Shown: positions 47 through 18,658 of the stretch, one piece after another | Layout of the letters: each line of letters opens with the position of its first letter | Position numbering within the stretch: the stretch's first letter is position 1 | Notes under the pieces: model-generated | Seen by the model: only the letters and a program-made list of their open reading frames with translations | The model's database searches: none | Told to the model about the DNA's origin: nothing | Made by a program: the position numbers and the translations under genes | NCBI GenBank assembly: GCA_003555465.1 | Contig: PWIB01000024.1 | Coordinates: 1-34,261, forward strand | Reading direction: 5' to 3' | Origin: Candidatus Aenigmatarchaeota archaeon | GTDB lineage: Archaea; Aenigmatarchaeota; Aenigmatarchaeia; PWEA01 | DNA: 34,261 bases

Positions 47-763
47 ATGAAAAGATTGAGCAGTGGAATTTCCGACCTAGACGGAAAGATCGAAGGAGGC
101 TTCTTCGAGGGTTCAGTAAACCTCGTTACAGGCAAAACCGGGACAGGTAAGACAGCCTTTTCTGCTTCATTTATCCACGAAGGCATCGAAAACGGTGAGC
201 CGGGGGTTTACATAACTACAGAGGAAGAAGAGGAAGACATAGTAAAGGATGTAAAGGAGATGTTCGGCTGGGATCTGACGGAGTATATGGAAGATGGCGG
301 TAATTTGAAGATAGATTCCGTAAAGCCTGTTTTTCCTACACGGGAAGTTGAAAACATAAACAGCTTGATACGCGGCTACGTCTCTGACTTCATGGAGAAG
401 CTGGAAGAAGACATTGAAGAAGTAGATGCTGAAAGAGTAGTAATTGATTCAGTTTCGCTTATAGAGATGTTCGTAAAGGACGAATACATGGCCAGAGTCG
501 TTATTTCTTCTGTTATAAGAAAGCTGAAGGAGATGGAGGTTACAGCTCTTTTGGTAGGAACAATACCGGAGACATCCGAAGGTCTCACGGAAGGAGGTAT
601 AGTTGAGTATCTGGTCGATAGTGTAGTAAAGCTTGAATTTACGCCGATATCGGATAGGTACAACAGAACTCTGGAGATAAGGAAGATGAGAAGGACAGAT
701 CACGAGATAGAGATCTTTCCTATAGAAATATCTGATACAGGTCTAAGGTTAAAGGAGAAATAA
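47..763 (+). CDS. KaiC/RAD55-family single-domain RecA-fold ATPase
   Basis: N-terminal SSGISDLD, Walker A GKTGTGKT, YITTEE, Walker B RVVIDS, VEYLVDSVV and RTLEIRKMR motifs typical of archaeal KaiC-like ATPases. Confidence 0.9.
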   Translation: MKRLSSGISDLDGKIEGGFFEGSVNLVTGKTGTGKTAFSASFIHEGIENGEPGVYITTEEEEEDIVKDVKEMFGWDLTEYMEDGGNLKIDSVKPVFPTREVENINSLIRGYVSDFMEKLEEDIEEVDAERVVIDSVSLIEMFVKDEYMARVVISSVIRKLKEMEVTALLVGTIPETSEGLTEGGIVEYLVDSVVKLEFTPISDRYNRTLEIRKMRRTDHEIEIFPIEISDTGLRLKEK

Positions 764-5392: not shown

Positions 5393-5475
5393 ACCTTTAC
5401 CTTCAGATTTCAGAAATATAAACATGACCGAAAGATAAATAAAGGGAACTGCAAAACAATTGAACGTCTGAGTGT

Positions 5476-5654
5476 CCCCCGATAGCTCAGGCTGGCAGAG
5501 CGGTCGGCTGTAGACGAGCACCTTGGATGATTACAAAGCGATGGACGTAGCCTAAATCTGCGTCTTTTCGTATCGGTATGATGACATGGTGCTTTGGATT
5601 AGCGCCTCTGCCGATACCGACAGGCCCCGTGTTCAAATCACGGTCGGGGGACCA
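5476..5654 (+). tRNA. tRNA-Tyr(GTA) with a 102-nt intron at 37/38 (5514-5615), CCA encoded
   Basis: Acceptor CCCCCGA/TCGGGGG (C1-G72, A73), D-stem GCTC/GAGC, anticodon stem GTCGG/CCGAC with CT-GTA-G|A loop, T-arm CCGTG-TTCAAAT-CACGG. Confidence 0.93.
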
Positions 5655-5812
5655 CTTCCTATTCTTCAGTAAAGAGTGGAATGTCCTTGCCTACAACGCT
5701 TCCTGATGTTCAATCATTATCATGCTTGCATGCATCTTCAACTTTTCCTTACTGAAAGCTGATCTTGTTTAAAGTTAAAAATCCAGAATCCCTATCTTAC
5801 TATGGTGTTTGT

Positions 5813-14055: not shown

Positions 14056-14847
14056 TCAAAGAAGGTCGTCGAGCACGTTCTGTATCCTCTCGAAGTCCTT
14101 TATCGTGCATTCGTAGACCCTTTTGTCGGGAAGACTTCCTTCCAGATCCTTTACTTCTTCTTCGTCCAGATCCAGAAAATGGGCGGAATCTTTGAGGGAG
14201 TTCTTTACAAGCTTTCGTTTGTGGTGGAAAGCTGCTTTAACTATCTTCCAGAACTCCCTGTCCTTCCCTTCCACATCCTTCTTTTCAAGCCTAACCACAG
14301 CAGAGTCAGTAACCGGCTCAGGATGGAACTTATCGGAGGTTATAACCCTGACCAACTCTGTGTCGCAGTGGTAGTTTACCTTGAGGGCCATGCGAGAGTT
14401 GTTCATGGTTCCAGGTTTACCTGTAAGTCTTTCGGCGAACTCCTTCTGGTAGATAAGGACTGCAAGGTCCCAGTCGAGGTTCAGAAGTTTGAAGGTCAGG
14501 GGTGTAGAAACGGAGTATGGAAGGTTCGAAACTATCTTGTTGAACTCGAGGTTCTTCAGGTGCGTGGACATAACGTCTCTCTGAAGAACTGTTATATTGT
14601 CCAGTTCGAGATGTCTCAAAACCGCAGCCATCCTGCCGTCCTTTTCTATAGCTGTAACCTGGCAGGTTTGGGCTATATACTTGGTCAGGTTGCCTATACC
14701 GGCGCCTATTTCGAGAACCCTGTCCCCTTCTTCCAGATTCGCAAGCTCCACGACTTCCTTCTGTATGTCTTCGTCCTCTATGAATATCTGATCTTTATGC
14801 TCCTTCGGCTCAAGGTTATACTTCCTTAGAACCTTCTTTACTTTCAT
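14056..14847 (-). CDS. rsmA: 16S rRNA m6,2A dimethyltransferase RsmA/KsgA/Dim1
   Basis: DQIF, VLEIGAGIGNLT, IEKD, VSNLPYSVS, QKEFAERL, F.P.P..DSAVV. Confidence 0.94.
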   Translation of the reverse strand: MKVKKVLRKYNLEPKEHKDQIFIEDEDIQKEVVELANLEEGDRVLEIGAGIGNLTKYIAQTCQVTAIEKDGRMAAVLRHLELDNITVLQRDVMSTHLKNLEFNKIVSNLPYSVSTPLTFKLLNLDWDLAVLIYQKEFAERLTGKPGTMNNSRMALKVNYHCDTELVRVITSDKFHPEPVTDSAVVRLEKKDVEGKDREFWKIVKAAFHHKRKLVKNSLKDSAHFLDLDEEEVKDLEGSLPDKRVYECTIKDFERIQNVLDDLL

Positions 14848-14900
14848 TCCGCATAACCCCAATGTATTTATAACCTACAAATTAAAATAGTTTGACCTAT

Positions 14901-15045
14901 GGGCCGGTGGTGTAGCCAGAAGAAAAGGTTCCTTTTCATTTTGTAGGAACCTAGCTTCCTACAATGGACTAGCATCGGGGCTTTGGGAGCCTCAGACAGG
15001 AGAGGTCCTTTGGACCCCTGAATTCAAATCTCCTCCGGCCCACCA
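14901..15045 (+). tRNA. tRNA-Pro(TGG) with two non-canonical introns: D-loop (14918-14964, 47 nt) and T-arm 53/54 (15003-15022, 20 nt); CCA encoded
   Basis: Acceptor GGGCCGG/CCGGCCC; anticodon arm GGGGC-TTTGGGA-GCCTC; T-stem AGGAG/CTCCT with TTCAAAT loop after splicing. BHB1: GTAG-CCA-GAAG / CTTC-CTAC-AAT. BHB2: GA-CAGG-AGA-GGTCC / GGACC-CCTG-AAT-TC. Confidence 0.92.
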
Positions 15046-15768
15046 ATCCTTTATCCTTTTTGGATTTCTTGGTTCAATTTTTCTAAGAAATTCCCTTGCT
15101 TCGTCTTTTGTAAGATAGACAAAGTTCATTGTATTATGACCCTCCCTATTGTCTTTATAGTTATAGAAAGTTGGATCGAAATCCAACCTTTCAATTAATT
15201 CTGAAATTTGATTTATCATATCTTTCGACGTACCAAAGAAGGATGCCTTTGGATAATCTTTATAACAATAACCATCAGAATCCAAATATCCTCTAAGAAA
15301 ACTCTTTATGAAGCATTCTTGGTGATCAAGTTCCTTTAATCTTACACTATAAGTCTTCTCATCCTGCCATTCTAAATATTCTGATATGAAATTCCTTATC
15401 CTCTTTGACACATATCTAACTTCTATTAGGTTCGCTTTATTGTATTTAAAAATATTTGGATCCTTATTGAACAGATCAGATAAAATTTCTTTTAGACTTT
15501 CCACATATTTATTCTCATCCCCGGAAAAATACAGCCTTATTCTGTGTCCGCCACATGACTTGTGGTAACTCCCATCACCTGCAAATACACCTAAAAATTC
15601 ACCGATTAATTCTTCACATTTATTTATGGATACTTCTTTGTAAGTCTTTCCAAAATTCTTCTTTATATGATAATAAGCTGTACTCTTACCTACGTTTAAT
15701 TCTTCACATATCTCAGTTAAGGACAAGCCATTTTCTCTGAGCTCAACAACCTTTTCTCCAAGAGACAT
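14992..15768 (-). CDS. Free-standing LAGLIDADG homing endonuclease with N-terminal HTH
   Basis: HTH (LRENGLSLTEICEELNVGKSTAYYH); two motifs EFLGVFAGDGS and FLRGYLDSDG; no intein splicing motifs; C-terminus runs antisense into tRNA-Pro; visibly AT-rich. Confidence 0.9.
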   Translation of the reverse strand: MSLGEKVVELRENGLSLTEICEELNVGKSTAYYHIKKNFGKTYKEVSINKCEELIGEFLGVFAGDGSYHKSCGGHRIRLYFSGDENKYVESLKEILSDLFNKDPNIFKYNKANLIEVRYVSKRIRNFISEYLEWQDEKTYSVRLKELDHQECFIKSFLRGYLDSDGYCYKDYPKASFFGTSKDMINQISELIERLDFDPTFYNYKDNREGHNTMNFVYLTKDEAREFLRKIEPRNPKRIKDWWAGGDLNSGVQRTSPV

Positions 15769-15882
15769 CTAATAATCCTCTAAAAGGTCCTCTATCACAT
15801 CGTTTACTTTCCTTCTATCCCCCTCGATTTTCATTTTCATTAATTTTTCCCATACACCCTCCGATACTTTGATGTTTTTCAT
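15769..15882 (-). CDS. 37-aa ribbon-helix-helix (CopG/VapB-antitoxin-like) protein, absent from the ORF track
   Basis: MKNIKVSEGVWEKLMKMKIEGDRRKVNDVIEDLLEDY fits the RHH pattern (I.VS....E.L...K.......DVI..LL); its TAG directly abuts the endonuclease ATG; TATA/BRE-like CAAAAAACATATAAAG about 30 nt upstream. Confidence 0.75.
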   Translation of the reverse strand: MKNIKVSEGVWEKLMKMKIEGDRRKVNDVIEDLLEDY

Positions 15883-15926
15883 GTTTATCTTTTTATACTT
15901 CTATCTTTATATGTTTTTTGATCCAG

Positions 15927-15956
15927 AATCACGGCCGGCCCACTATTCCTTTGTCC
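15927..15956 (+). repeat. Displaced relic of the tRNA-Pro 3' end (diverged direct repeat of 15027-15056)
   Basis: AATCACGGCCGGCCCACTATTCCTTTGTCC vs AATCTCCTCCGGCCCACCAATCCTTTATCC, 24/30 identical. Confidence 0.85.
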
Positions 15957-16036
15957 GATAAACCTTTGACACGTACCGATTTATCTTCAAGCAAAACCTT
16001 TAAATAACCGGAAGTGTATTACCAACGCTGGTATCC

Positions 16037-18658
16037 ATGACCAAATATGTATACTCTTTCGACGAAGGCAGCGCGGACATGAAAAACCTCTTAGGTGGAA
16101 AAGGTTCTAATCTAGCTGAAATGACAACAATAGGTCTAAACGTACCTTCTGGCTATACCGTCACGACGGAGGCCTGTGTAGAGTACTTGGATGAGGGAGA
16201 GTTGACGCAGGAAATGGAAAAGCAGATGAAGAAGTATATGAAGAAACTGGAAAAGGAGATGGACCAGGAGTTCGGAGATCCGGAAGATCCTCTACTGGTT
16301 TCTGTACGCTCCGGCGCTGCTGTATCTATGCCTGGTATGATGGATACCATTCTCAACCTGGGACTAAACGATGAAACTGTCGAAGGACTAGTAGAGAAGA
16401 CGGACGAGAGGTTTGCCTACGACAGCTACAGACGTTTCATAAACATGTTTGGTGAGGTAGTGAGAGGAATACCTCACAGAAAGTTCGAGGAGAAGATGGA
16501 CGAAGTCAAGGACAAAAGAAATGCGGACAAGGACGTTGACCTCGGCGCAGAGGGAATGAAGAAAGTCGTTGAAAAGTACAAGGAACTTGTCGATGATATC
16601 CCCTCGGATCCATGGGAGCAGCTCCTCGAGGCCACAAAGGCTGTTTTCGAGTCCTGGGACAATGACAGAGCTATCAGATGGAGGAACATCCAGGGACTTC
16701 CACACGACATGGGAACAGCTGTAAACGTGCAGACCATGGTTTACGGAAATACAGGTAACAACTCCGGTAGTGGCGTCGCGTTCACGAGAAATCCTTCCAC
16801 AGGTGAGAACGAGGTCTATGGTGAATTCTTGAGGAACGCACAAGGAGAAGACGTTGTTGCAGGAATAAGGACGCCTCTTGATATTTCTGAGTTAAGGGAA
16901 ATATGGCCAGATATCTACGAAGAGCTCGAAGAGGTATGCAAGATTCTCGAGGACAAGTACAAGGACATGCAGGACCTCGAGTTTACAGTTGAAGACGGTG
17001 AACTTTACATCCTTCAGACGAGGACAGGCAAGAGAACGCCTAACGCCGCAGTGAAGATAGCACACGACATGTGTGAAGAAGGAATAATCAGCAAGGAAGT
17101 AGCTCTTCTGAGAGTTGAAGGTGAACAGATAGAAAAAATACTACATAAGAGAATAGATCCTGAAGCCGAGCTTGAAGAGATGACTCAGGGTATAAACGCT
17201 TCCCCTGGAGCAGCTTCAGGCAGTGTCGTCTTCGATACGGACGAGGCCGAAAGAAGAGGTGAAGACGGTGAAGATATAGTTCTCGTAAGACCGGAGACTA
17301 CGCCGGAGGACATCCACGGTTTAGCGGCTTCGGAGGGAGTTCTTACAAGCAGAGGAGGAATGACAAGCCATGCAGCCGTTGTCGCAAGAGGCATGGGAAA
17401 GCCCTGTGTCGCAGGAGCCGAGGAGATCGACATAAACCTTGAGGAGGAGTACTTCGAGGTCAACGGAAAAAGGATAGAAAAGGACGATGTAATCACAATA
17501 GACGGAACTACAGGTGACGTAATAGAAGGCGAAGCACCGTTGATAGAACCCGAGTTCACCGAAGAGTTCGAGAAGCTCCTTCAATGGGCCGACGATATAA
17601 GAAAGATGGGCGTCAGAGCTAATGCTGATACACCCGAAGATACAAAGCAAGCGATAGAGTTCGGTGCTGAAGGTATCGGTCTCTGCAGGACGGAACACAT
17701 GTTCTTCGAGCCTGAAAGACTCGAGGTCATGCAGGAGCTGATAATCTCCGAGGAGAAAGAAGAAAGACAAAGAGCTTTGGACAAGCTTATGCCTATGCAG
17801 AAGGAGGACTTCAAGGGACTGTTTGAAGCGATAGAAGGAAGACCTCTTATAATCAGACTTCTGGATCCACCTCTGCATGAGTTTGCTCCAACTGAGGAAG
17901 GAAGACAGAAAGAACTGGCGCAGAAGCTCGACATAACCAAGGAAGAGATAGAGGCGAAGGTCGAGAGGCTTGAAGAGGAGAATCCGATGCTTGGTCACAG
18001 AGGATGTCGTCTCGGAATAACCTTCCCTGAAATCTACAGGATGCAGGTCCGTGCTATCCTTGAAGCAGCTTCAGAGGTCAAGGAGGAAGGTCAGGAAGTG
18101 AAGCCTAAGATAATGGTTCCGCTTATAGGAAACGTAAAGGAGCTGGAGAACGTCAAGGAGCAAGTTGTAAAGGAAGTAGAAGAGGAAATCTTTGAAACCA
18201 AGGAAGGGGTGGACTACGAGGTCGGTACGATGATAGAGATTCCAAGGGCTGCTGTCACAGCAGACAAAATTGCAGAAGAAGCGGAGTTCTTTTCCTTCGG
18301 AACCAACGACCTGACTCAGATGGGCCTAGGATTCAGCAGAGACGACGCAGGAACCTTCATTCCGAACTACATAGATCAGGGAATATTCGAGGAGGATCCG
18401 TTCCAGGTGCTCGACCAGGACGGAATAGGTCAGTTTGTAGAAATGGCCACGGAAAGAGGAAGGAGTACGAAGGAAGATTTATCCGTAGGAATCTGTGGTG
18501 AACACGGCGGTGAGCCTTCCTCGGTCAAGTTCTGCTACAAAGCCGGCCTTGACTACGTCAGCTGCTCACCGTACAGAGTTCCAGTGGCACGTATAGCTGC
18601 AGCGCAGGTAGTCATTGAAGAAGAAATGGACGTGGACGAAGGAGTCGAGGGCTACTAA
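16037..18658 (+). CDS. ppdK: Pyruvate, phosphate dikinase
   Basis: LLGGKGSNL, LLVSVRSGA..SMPGMMDT, GGMTSHAAVVAR, IGLCRTEHMF, NPMLGHRGCR, GTNDLTQ, CGEHGG. Confidence 0.98.
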   Translation: MTKYVYSFDEGSADMKNLLGGKGSNLAEMTTIGLNVPSGYTVTTEACVEYLDEGELTQEMEKQMKKYMKKLEKEMDQEFGDPEDPLLVSVRSGAAVSMPGMMDTILNLGLNDETVEGLVEKTDERFAYDSYRRFINMFGEVVRGIPHRKFEEKMDEVKDKRNADKDVDLGAEGMKKVVEKYKELVDDIPSDPWEQLLEATKAVFESWDNDRAIRWRNIQGLPHDMGTAVNVQTMVYGNTGNNSGSGVAFTRNPSTGENEVYGEFLRNAQGEDVVAGIRTPLDISELREIWPDIYEELEEVCKILEDKYKDMQDLEFTVEDGELYILQTRTGKRTPNAAVKIAHDMCEEGIISKEVALLRVEGEQIEKILHKRIDPEAELEEMTQGINASPGAASGSVVFDTDEAERRGEDGEDIVLVRPETTPEDIHGLAASEGVLTSRGGMTSHAAVVARGMGKPCVAGAEEIDINLEEEYFEVNGKRIEKDDVITIDGTTGDVIEGEAPLIEPEFTEEFEKLLQWADDIRKMGVRANADTPEDTKQAIEFGAEGIGLCRTEHMFFEPERLEVMQELIISEEKEERQRALDKLMPMQKEDFKGLFEAIEGRPLIIRLLDPPLHEFAPTEEGRQKELAQKLDITKEEIEAKVERLEEENPMLGHRGCRLGITFPEIYRMQVRAILEAASEVKEEGQEVKPKIMVPLIGNVKELENVKEQVVKEVEEEIFETKEGVDYEVGTMIEIPRAAVTADKIAEEAEFFSFGTNDLTQMGLGFSRDDAGTFIPNYIDQGIFEEDPFQVLDQDGIGQFVEMATERGRSTKEDLSVGICGEHGGEPSSVKFCYKAGLDYVSCSPYRVPVARIAAAQVVIEEEMDVDEGVEGY

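Follow-up and report, generated by a model that had tools for sequence, protein, structure and literature searches.

How archaeal tRNA genes come to carry introns at non-canonical positions, and where tRNA fragments and split tRNAs originate, are old questions. They are raised by a locus of a Candidatus Aenigmatarchaeota archaeon, a member of a DPANN lineage, in which a tRNA-Pro(UGG) gene is interrupted by an intron within its T arm, and a second, intron-less version of its 3' end is found 900 bp further on, beyond a gene for an endonuclease of the LAGLIDADG family. The window, by which the whole stretch of DNA analysed is meant, is the complete contig C60 (34,261 bp) of this organism's genome, hereafter G000 (632 kb in 62 contigs, 46% GC, 90% complete). 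What placed an intron, an endonuclease gene and a second 3' end at one tRNA? The explanation that we favor, with a probability of about 65%, is that positions 14998 to 15926 of the window are a mobile cassette reduced to a minimum, that of a free-standing homing endonuclease which targets tRNA genes and moves with a resistant segment of tRNA. The structural part of this explanation (a foreign 3' part of the tRNA, a relic of the former one, no integrase and a family of tRNA-associated homologues) is well supported; cutting of the tRNA gene and immunity of the present allele are predictions.

Comparison with the same-genus genome G007 delimits the cassette. Homology between the two genomes ends after ...CAGAC (window 14997) and picks up again at window 15927; positions 14998-15926 are therefore an insertion, located in the T arm of tRNA-Pro(UGG). 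The features of the locus are as follows.

14056-14862, minus strand: rRNA adenine dimethylase of the rsmA/ksgA type (Pfam RrnaAD, 2.8e-46), the upstream host flank, syntenic with G007, G003 and G006.
14901-15045, plus strand: tRNA-Pro(UGG) gene with two bulge-helix-bulge (BHB) introns, called by ARAGORN after intron removal.
14918-14964, plus strand: 47-nt BHB intron of the D loop, of host type, with the helix GTAG/CUAC.
14992-15768, minus strand: open reading frame (ORF) of 258 amino acids, a helix-turn-helix (HTH) plus two-domain LAGLIDADG endonuclease (Pfam LAGLIDADG_3, 1.5e-14).
14998-15926, no strand assigned: segment inserted relative to the same-genus genomes, 929 bp, replacing 9 host nucleotides (CCGTGTTCA, tRNA positions 49-57).
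14998-15002, plus strand: new 5' strand of the T stem, AGGAG, pairing with CTCCT; none of seven same-genus genomes has AGGAG.
15003-15022, plus strand: 20-nt BHB intron between tRNA positions 53 and 54, with the canonical hBHBh' motif.
15023-15045, plus strand: new T loop, T-stem 3' strand CTCCT, acceptor 3' strand CCGGCCC, discriminator A and CCA.
15769-15882, minus strand: ORF of 37 amino acids resembling ribbon-helix-helix/VapB proteins, abutting the endonuclease start codon (weak VAPB_antitox match, 19.8 bits, 0.0014, cut-off 27.9).
15883-15926, minus strand: AT-rich spacer with TATA-like motifs 5' of the small ORF, a putative promoter at the right end of the insert.
15927-15956, plus strand: relic of the original 3' end of tRNA-Pro(UGG) (positions 58-76, AAT-CACGG-CCGGCCC-A, then host trailer), the downstream copy of a direct repeat.
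16037-18658, plus strand: pyruvate phosphate dikinase gene, ppdK (Pfam PPDK_N, PEP-utilizers and PEP-utilizers_C), the downstream host flank, syntenic in same-genus genomes.

In its native form, the tRNA-Pro(UGG) gene is missed by both ARAGORN and Rfam; being also overlapped by the endonuclease ORF, it holds a lesson for genome annotation. When 14918-14964 and 15003-15022 are excised, ARAGORN returns a perfect 78-nt tRNA-Pro(UGG) cloverleaf with the T stem AGGAG/CTCCT and an encoded CCA. No second copy of tRNA-Pro(UGG) was found by BLAST of G000's own assembly. Both introns have the two 3-nt bulges, the 4-bp helix between them and the splice sites within the bulges that characterize archaeal BHB introns. 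In the T-arm intron, the central helix is CAGG/CCUG, the bulges are AG|A and AA|U, the inner helix has 5 bp and the outer one 2 bp, so that the perfect 20-nt BHB intron reported in a preliminary description of the window, made from its letters, is indeed of the canonical form. As the cassette supplies a new T arm, acceptor 3' strand, CCA and terminator, the tRNA stays whole. Its splicing is possible, given that a two-domain splicing endonuclease is encoded on contig C61 (1352-2179; L129/L130) as a single ORF of 372 amino acids with two tRNA_int_endo catalytic domains; this enzyme may be of the broad-specificity type, as would be expected where non-canonical introns abound in the genome.

Do close relatives possess the uninterrupted gene? 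tRNA-Pro(UGG) was recovered in all seven same-genus genomes, with T arms reading CCGAG/CTCGG or CCGTG/CACGG, and a DNA search of the family together with reading of the loci found the T-arm intron, the AGGAG/CTCCT arm and the cassette in none of them. The empty sites foreseen for relatives therefore exist, with the arm CCGTG-TTCAAAT-CACGG in G004 and G001. In G007, G003 and G006, rsmA is followed by an intron-less tRNA with CCGAG/CTCGG and then by ppdK, one additional gene preceding ppdK in G006. The tRNA-Pro(UGG) of G001 (CCGTG/CACGG) is also intron-less, and those of G002, G004 and G005 have a D-loop intron; in G002 and G004 this intron, over the 5' part of the tRNA, is 95-97% identical to that of the window. 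In G004, the arm continues as CCGGCCC-ACCA and then as a pyrimidine-rich trailer resembling that of the relic. The endonuclease is found in none of the eight other genomes of the family.

Two further observations concern the same genes in the genus. The 47-nt D-loop intron of the window recurs nearly unchanged in tRNA-Pro(UGG) of G002 (L031, G002:C29) and G004 (L026, G004:C90), and also in tRNA-Pro(CGG) of G002 (L023, G002:C69, 2004-2128); it is missing from tRNA-Pro(UGG) of G001, G003, G006 and G007, and in G005 that site is occupied by another, longer D-loop intron. The pattern suggests that isoacceptors exchange introns and that introns are rapidly gained and lost inside one genus. Moreover, G006 and G004 have an additional gene of about 1.2 kb, for a multi-pass membrane-like protein, between tRNA-Pro(UGG) and ppdK (L017, G006:C28, 6030-7270; L026, G004:C90, 5640-6880). 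It is absent from G000, G003, G007 and G002, so the intergenic site between tRNA-Pro(UGG) and ppdK is variable within the genus.

The relic at 15927-15956 is contiguous with host DNA, and its orthologues are the 3' end and trailer that the intact tRNA-Pro(UGG) genes of G007 and G004 possess. The direct repeat first noticed in the letters stands as described: 15027-15056 and 15927-15956 (30 nt) agree at 24 of 30 positions (80%) with a spacing of 900. It is also true that CACGG of the downstream copy cannot pair with AGGAG, and that CCGTG/CACGG is the T stem of the tRNA-Tyr of G000 (window 5627-5643, CCGTG-TTCAAAT-CACGG). The same arm occurs in tRNA-Pro(GGG) on contig C14, which has the acceptor CCGGCCC as well. 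The similarity of the trailers of the two copies (9/11) was considered as proof of duplication and set aside as weak evidence, because the new trailer is the antisense of a conserved C-terminal motif of the endonuclease, PRNPKRIK.W, and because archaeal tRNA trailers are pyrimidine-rich in unrelated genomes too. Two other views of the relic were also rejected. It is not the 3' half of a split tRNA: it starts at position 58, without positions 49-57 and hence without the 5' strand of the T stem, its CCA reads CTA, and it is orthologous to intact 3' ends. Nor is the whole cassette a giant intron, since ...CAGAC joined to the relic forms no T arm. As to the tRNA-Tyr-like gene itself (5475-5655, plus strand; anticodon GTA, CCA encoded), it has a long insertion after the anticodon loop, and yields no ARAGORN call and no Rfam match even at E<=1.

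The content of the insert is simple. It comprises the new T arm with its intron, the new acceptor 3' strand with CCA, the endonuclease gene and the 37-aa ORF, without any other ORF. Its AT-richness, noted from the start, corresponds to a GC content of 0.29-0.36 over 15100-15999, against 0.44-0.50 in the flanks and 0.46 in the genome. The absence of an integrase, also part of the preliminary description, extends beyond these two ORFs: tyrosine recombinases (PF00589, Xer-type included) had no match in the 632-kb, 90%-complete assembly of G000, and the positive control was positive in 14 of 14 genomes. The 37-aa ORF has no counterpart elsewhere in G000 or in the other loci where homologues of the endonuclease reside (it is present in 1 of 60, namely G000); it is therefore an accessory of the G000 copy, and the endonuclease is the sole shared gene. 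The low GC content, the absence from the eight other genomes of the family, the scattered occurrence in the phylum (28 of 371 genomes) and the stop codons in several copies point to a cassette of foreign origin.

The endonuclease gene is single-copy in G000. Its ORF starts with M, lies 3' of the tRNA and antisense to it, and its final 18 codons are antisense tRNA. It had been described as neither an intein nor intron-borne, which holds: no intein-type Pfam domain is present, and the ORF is outside both BHB introns. Two motifs, ...GVFAGDGS... and ...LRGYLDSDG..., are recognizable; in an alignment of 17 sequences (A1), D65, G66 and G166 are invariant and D165 is kept in at least 90%. At the N terminus, the HTH families of Pfam all match under their cut-offs. 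An AlphaFold2 model has a predicted local distance difference test score (pLDDT) of 89.9 and a predicted template modelling score of 0.79, and residues 246-258, encoded by antisense tRNA, have pLDDT <50 and are predicted to be disordered. With this model, Foldseek retrieves the TliVMA intein endonuclease (E 3e-11), I-DmoI (template modelling score 0.72-0.78 on target) and I-Tsp061I; fold and hidden Markov model searches together point to intein endonuclease domains, I-DmoI and I-Tsp061I and, more distantly, WhiA. The predicted fold has the pseudo-dimeric alpha-beta-beta-alpha-beta-beta-alpha topology. The LAGLIDADG_3 match, the conserved motifs, the model and the fold matches identify the protein as a LAGLIDADG enzyme of the monomeric, two-domain kind, to which an N-terminal HTH has been added. 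Since the acidic residues of the motifs are kept and the model is confident, it looks active.

Is the position beside a tRNA peculiar to this genome? In a collection of 5.8 billion proteins, the endonuclease has four close relatives besides itself, the best being 54% identical (P0002). A six-frame search of 371 genomes of the phylum gave matches at E<=1e-10 in 28 of them, scattered over many families and in several cases with in-frame stops, and a scan of metagenome contigs added 43 homologue loci. The resulting set of 72 loci (L001, L002, L004, L033-L058 and L074-L116) was reduced to 60 by removing 12 with proteins >90% identical; L003 and L005-L012 were kept outside this count, being weak matches, two of them in rRNA introns, with several long ORFs. 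In 40 of the 60 loci, which are mutually related, a tRNA called by ARAGORN overlaps the stop of the endonuclease ORF or lies <=40 nt from it, and in none (0/60) is this so at the ORF start; by way of background, 5.8% of all positions in these loci are equally near a tRNA. Thus, the homologues do adjoin tRNA genes, as had been asked of them. Among the 20 misses, at least four (G000, L040, L046 and L057) have multi-intron tRNAs that were read by eye, and three end at a contig edge.

The 40 tRNAs are on the same strand as the ORF in 30 cases, where the tRNA 5' end meets the stop, and convergent with it in 10, where the tRNA 3' end does. That both orientations occur may reflect that the acceptor 5' strand is the antisense of the 3' strand, so that the same junction fits either end of a tRNA. 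Indeed, the conserved C-terminal motif of the protein (PRNPKR..W in the window's clade) stops exactly at the start of acceptor-stem sequence. The partner tRNAs differ among loci. Along a tree of 53 of the 60 rows, the identity of the tRNA, as labelled by ARAGORN, changes 18 times, against 24-29 times in the 20 printed of 200 shuffles; this tree comes from a quick search, many of its forks are unsupported, and the seven rows with an ORF of <180 or >300 amino acids were omitted. More distant homologues are found inside insertions of rRNA genes, one in a 649-nt insertion of a small subunit rRNA gene (L003, G039:C41, 1086-2560) and others in 767-843-nt insertions of a large subunit rRNA gene (L012, G021:C1). 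Judged by homology, these would link the tRNA-flanking family to the classical rRNA-intron endonucleases.

The relic is not unique either. Convergent loci were searched for a copy of the neighbouring tRNA's acceptor 3' strand and discriminator, on the tRNA strand and with <=1 mismatch in 8, within 260 nt upstream of the endonuclease gene. Such a copy exists in 7 of 14 loci, the corresponding value in shuffles being 0.56. In six of them (G000, L036, L040, L046, L084 and L087), T-stem or T-loop sequence comes before the copy, and these are genuine relics; that of L054, the seventh, is an inverted 5' fragment. In three of these loci, a BHB intron interrupts the new T arm and has no counterpart in the relic: at 53/54 in G000, and at 59/60 in L040 (19 nt; new T stem GGGGG/CCCCC, relic CCGGG/CCCGG) and L046 (32 nt; new T stem ATGGG/CCCAT, relic AGGGG/CCCCT). 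The stem is recoded and intron-less in L036, and in L084 and L087 it is unchanged, without T-arm intron. The expected recurrence of duplicated 3' ends and T-arm BHB introns is thereby seen at six relic loci, in three of which the intron is confined to the new arm.

Same-strand loci have relics too: in L002, L039, L074 and L077, antisense relics of a tRNA 3' end stand directly upstream of the endonuclease gene. The relic of L035 comes from a different tRNA. Read by eye, the breakpoints cluster. Relics start at about 57-58 in G000, L035, L084 and L087; position 57 is also where antisense or truncated fragments stop in L076 and L033, and the one in L075 stops close to it. The introns at 53/54 (G000) and 59/60 (L040, L046) flank the T loop in which these breakpoints fall. 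The T stems of the relics vary (CCGTG, AGGAG, CCCAG and others), whereas no variation is seen within the window's clade in the variable loop (GAC), T loop or acceptor. A blastn-short scan for repeats was too insensitive, missing G000's own repeat, and the 11-nt match that it gave in L033 (E 0.016) may be due to chance. A further arrangement is seen on the minus strand of L002 (G038:C2), where the endonuclease gene and an intact tRNA-Gly(CCC) lie between fragments of another tRNA (1404-1438 and 2297-2313): a 17-nt 5' fragment (acceptor GCGGCCA and D stem) and, some 0.9 kb off, the matching T arm with acceptor 3' end. The insertion seems to have split this flanking tRNA or destroyed it.

A second pair of filled and empty sites is provided by genus g82. 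In G157 and G163 (L117/L118), the endonuclease gene is located between tRNA-Pro(GGG) and tRNA-Pro(UGG) and ends 2 nt before the latter; in G161, G160 and G165 (L120, L121 and L122, respectively), the site is empty and the two tRNAs are 37 nt apart. The comparison is confined to these five genomes, G158, G159, G162 and G164, with split matches, having been left out. Between G161 and G157, the tRNA that touches the endonuclease gene is identical at 59 of 75 positions and the other tRNA at 68 of 75. The former differs in the acceptor, the D stem, the anticodon stem and the variable loop but not in the T arm, and no repeat is present. In these genomes, the adjacent tRNA seems to have been brought in as an entire allele along with the endonuclease gene, as two-sided homing with co-conversion would give. 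Presence or absence of the gene together with co-converted flanks is accordingly seen in two comparisons, G000 versus its seven congeners and within g82. It may be added that the insertion in g82 displaces a TATA-like TTTATAAA, which precedes tRNA-Pro(UGG) in the empty genomes; transcription of the filled tRNA-Pro(UGG) may now start inside the endonuclease gene or be shared with it.

Where did the T-arm intron come from? A module composed of AGGAG, a 23-26-nt intron ending in CCTGAA at 53/54, and TTCAAAT-CTCCT exists in other Aenigmatarchaeota, in tRNA-Pro(UGG) of G285 (C20, L061/L070) and L069, and in tRNA-Val(GAC) of G363 (C37, L065/L071) and L073. In the BLAST of the new arm across the 371 genomes, matches were mostly generic T-loop or acceptor ones, G285 and G363 being the only informative genomes. 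Since the module exists there without the endonuclease in the DNA fetched, the intron of G000 was imported and not made in place. The arm is also known without the intron: the relic of L074, beside a 41%-identical endonuclease gene, reads GAC-AGGAG-TTCAAAT-CTCCT-CGGGCCC-A, and the C terminus of P0002, ...GWARGDLNSGIA, would, from the peptide alone, be the antisense coding of such a tRNA 3' end. Taken together, these sequences suggest that the AGGAG arm is native to some lineages, that the intron is independent of the endonuclease there, and that G000 received arm, intron and gene together. Hence, the preliminary interpretation is retained as to the foreign, intron-bearing 3' part, the relic, the empty sites and the tRNA-associated family, and is tempered as to the intron, which was imported.

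These observations can be assembled into the following scenario. The endonuclease would cut tRNA alleles that lack it, within the T loop or next to it; indirect pointers to such cutting are the nine nucleotides lost at positions 49-57 and the clustering of relic breakpoints in the T loop. The break would be repaired from the donor allele, the endonuclease gene and the tRNA segment attached to its 3' end being copied together (co-conversion). In G000, homologous recombination in the part of the tRNA body common to both alleles would have settled the left side, and an illegitimate joining at the break would have closed the right one, which would account for the relic and for the loss of 9 nt. 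The imported arm is expected to be uncleavable, as its stem differs and its intron, which presumably coincides with the cleavage site in tRNA-Pro(UGG), would shift the variable-loop side of that site 20 bp from the T loop. One may speculate that a target read in its constant parts (variable loop, T loop and acceptor) is most simply disabled by a changed spacing, which an intron at either 53/54 or 59/60 brings about. A free-standing endonuclease and an ORF-less intron would then form an archaeal BHB counterpart of "collaborative homing". A broader proposal is that a widespread DPANN family of HTH-LAGLIDADG endonucleases homes into tRNA genes, fused to a resistant tRNA piece with a BHB intron in the T-loop area (53/54 or 59/60), the intron persisting after loss of the gene, which a deletion from the new end to the relic might cause; this extension is tentative, and we would sooner bet against it than for it.

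Several points weigh against the homing scenario. The loci behind the 40 of 60 are not independent of one another, so that this association is a description and not a probability, and ARAGORN isotype calls are unreliable for multi-intron tRNAs. Among the six relic-bearing convergent loci, three (L036, L084 and L087) have no T-arm intron in the new copy. Conversely, T-arm introns are not specific to the cassette: at least four other tRNAs of G000 have T-loop introns at 59/60 with no endonuclease nearby, and no homologue or relic was found beside the module in the DNA fetched around L069, L061/L070, L065/L071 and L073. The naive-type arm CCGTG-TTCAAAT-CACGG is intact in tRNA-Pro(GGG) of G000, which has the same acceptor, and in its tRNA-Tyr. 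This excludes a target made of the T arm only, and specificity would therefore need the variable loop, the anticodon stem or the spacing. Likewise, the relics of L040, L046, L036, L074 and L077 are whole T arms beside an apparently intact endonuclease gene, which is awkward because the target would be intact if the T arm were all of it. In addition, classical two-sided homing leaves no relic, and an extra illegitimate step must therefore be assumed. The endonuclease could be a passenger.

The other 59/60 introns of G000 could be old footprints or unrelated. They are insertions of 40-62 nt in four tRNAs on the plus strand, with T-loop starts at C4:~2431, C4:~22235, C9:~3164 and C27:~18531. Three of the four share motifs (GAACCTTTTT ... 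GTTCATCA ... GAAAA) which resemble the B recognition element/TATA-like sequence upstream of ppdK, and the inserts may be a related intron family spread over different tRNAs. The genome scan for split T arms that yielded them is noisy: 4 of 57 candidates of the 59/60 type were accepted, and of the 59 found for the 53/54 type, all but tRNA-Pro(UGG) lack an acceptor that is GC-rich and tRNA-like.

The passenger idea deserves to be stated in full. A foreign tRNA-Pro 3' part and the gene adjoining it would have been acquired horizontally and then built in by recombination, ordinary or illegitimate; the LAGLIDADG gene would just reside by tRNA genes, which are safe, conserved and well transcribed, would not have made the break, and would have its target, if any, elsewhere. 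The occurrence of the arm and intron module without the gene, the survival of the naive T arm in two other tRNAs of G000 and the non-homologous nature of one junction all fit this view. Mere co-residence, however, hardly explains why the 3' end of the gene meets a tRNA end within a few nucleotides in 40 of 60 loci and the 5' end never does. The catalytic residues are conserved, a unit of about 0.9 kb with relics recurs at different tRNAs, and the replaced tRNA allele stands exactly beside the gene in two independent filled/empty pairs; we thus regard a passive gene as unlikely. An integrative element leaves a similar picture, direct repeats of a tRNA 3' end around low-GC DNA being the classical att signature. 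A virus or plasmid could have integrated at the 3' end of tRNA-Pro through an attP carrying the intron-bearing arm, as in the model published for Caldiarchaeum (PMC3293823), later deletions having removed the integrase and nearly everything else. Yet such elements have a tyrosine recombinase and recombine conservatively, with near-identical repeats. Here, PF00589 is absent from the assembly and no integrase fragment exists within the 929 bp; 9 nt were lost, the repeats agree at 24 of 30 positions, and the new T-stem 5' strand and the intron lie outside the repeat. Furthermore, at least six loci at different tRNAs have the same small unit, whose sole shared gene is that of the endonuclease. With neither a recombinase nor conservative att repeats, the cassette is therefore not classed as an integrase-type element, and a decayed one is improbable.

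A domesticated protein would be a different matter altogether: the HTH-LAGLIDADG protein would be a non-mobile host factor tied to tRNA genes, e.g. a WhiA-like regulator, and the relic would stem from an unrelated rearrangement. WhiA, which combines LAGLIDADG domains and an HTH, is indeed among the sequence and fold matches, and the position beside tRNAs is constant. The LAGLIDADG motifs of WhiA are degenerate, unlike those of the endonuclease, which still has its catalytic Asp residues. Occurrence is patchy (28 of 371 genomes, 0/8 in the own family), with presence and absence varying within two genera; copies with in-frame stops exist, the GC content is foreign and the partner tRNAs differ between loci, all of which makes a resident host factor very improbable. 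Finally, G000 is a 62-contig, probably metagenomic, assembly, and tRNA sequence is common to different organisms, so that a chimeric contig might join the tRNA-Pro loci of two organisms through it. The right junction, however, shares with the left copy only a short and imperfect identity (24/30), an overlap insufficient for bridging by an assembler. Nor would a chimera pick up host sequence again precisely at tRNA position 58 and run on into the host trailer and ppdK, and the same layout is seen in independent assemblies. An assembly artefact is hardly credible.

How does the homing cassette compare with known systems? Phage T4 SegB is listed with the insertion site tRNA-Arg/tRNA-Ile and the target "tRNA intergenic region" (PMC2988022). 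As with free-standing homing endonucleases of this kind (PMC2988022, PMC3984707), the gene studied here is outside any intron or intein, lies beside tRNA genes, has co-inherited flanks and is present or absent among close relatives. Unlike SegB, which is a phage GIY-YIG enzyme, it is an HTH-LAGLIDADG protein of cellular DPANN archaea, known here from sequence; it is placed end-to-end with the tRNA and, in the window, brings along a substitute for part of that tRNA, with a relic left behind. Collaborative (trans) homing, in which a free-standing endonuclease is associated with an ORF-less intron at its target, is illustrated by cyanophage psbA/F-CphI and Aeh1 nrdA/mobE (PMC3984707). The window likewise has an ORF-less intron in a host gene beside a free-standing endonuclease gene, an intron which would protect the carrier allele and travel along. 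In those examples the introns are self-splicing group I introns of phage protein genes, whereas here a 20-nt, protein-spliced BHB intron is found in a tRNA T arm.

The closest published parallel comes from archaeal integrative elements. According to Sugahara et al. (2012), a 1.8-kb insertion in Caldiarchaeum, encoding a recombinase, is flanked on one side by a fragment of tRNA-Thr and on the other by a tRNA-Thr that has an additional intron, and an intron-carrying attP was proposed to have introduced that intron (PMC3293823). The cassette resembles this model, and elements of the SSV and pNOB8 types as presented there, in that its own part of the tRNA is brought in, the displaced host part remains as a fragment and an intron arrives with the element. 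With I-DmoI and I-Tsp061I, the LAGLIDADG endonucleases of archaeal rRNA introns, it shares motifs and predicted fold. However, the ORFs of these enzymes are inside the BHB intron of the gene into which they home, whereas the ORF of the window is outside the tRNA and antisense to it, has an additional N-terminal HTH and is accompanied by a nearby intron without ORF. A full-text literature search, to which supplements and subscription journals were outside, gave no description of LAGLIDADG genes adjoining tRNA genes in DPANN archaea. One unrelated feature of the window may be recorded here, a weak match to a C/D-box sRNA (Rfam sR52; 224-280, plus strand; 24.4 bits, E 0.38, below the gathering score).

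What does this locus mean for the origin of archaeal tRNA introns? Published ideas on their gain include an unexplained "intron transposition". Integrating viruses or plasmids with integrases have also been proposed (PMC3293823). What is new here is that the agent of change in a tRNA would be a homing endonuclease, and that, in three independent cases, a single locus shows the former end of a tRNA, free of introns, next to its intron-bearing replacement, with empty sites in close relatives. The cassette suggests one way in which archaeal tRNA genes acquire odd introns. It also makes the origin of non-canonical tRNA introns a question that can be tested at the bench. If the broader proposal made above is true, it would provide a concrete engine by which non-canonical introns of archaeal tRNAs, and orphan tRNA fragments too, arise and spread, as well as the first "collaborative homing" pair built on a protein-spliced intron.

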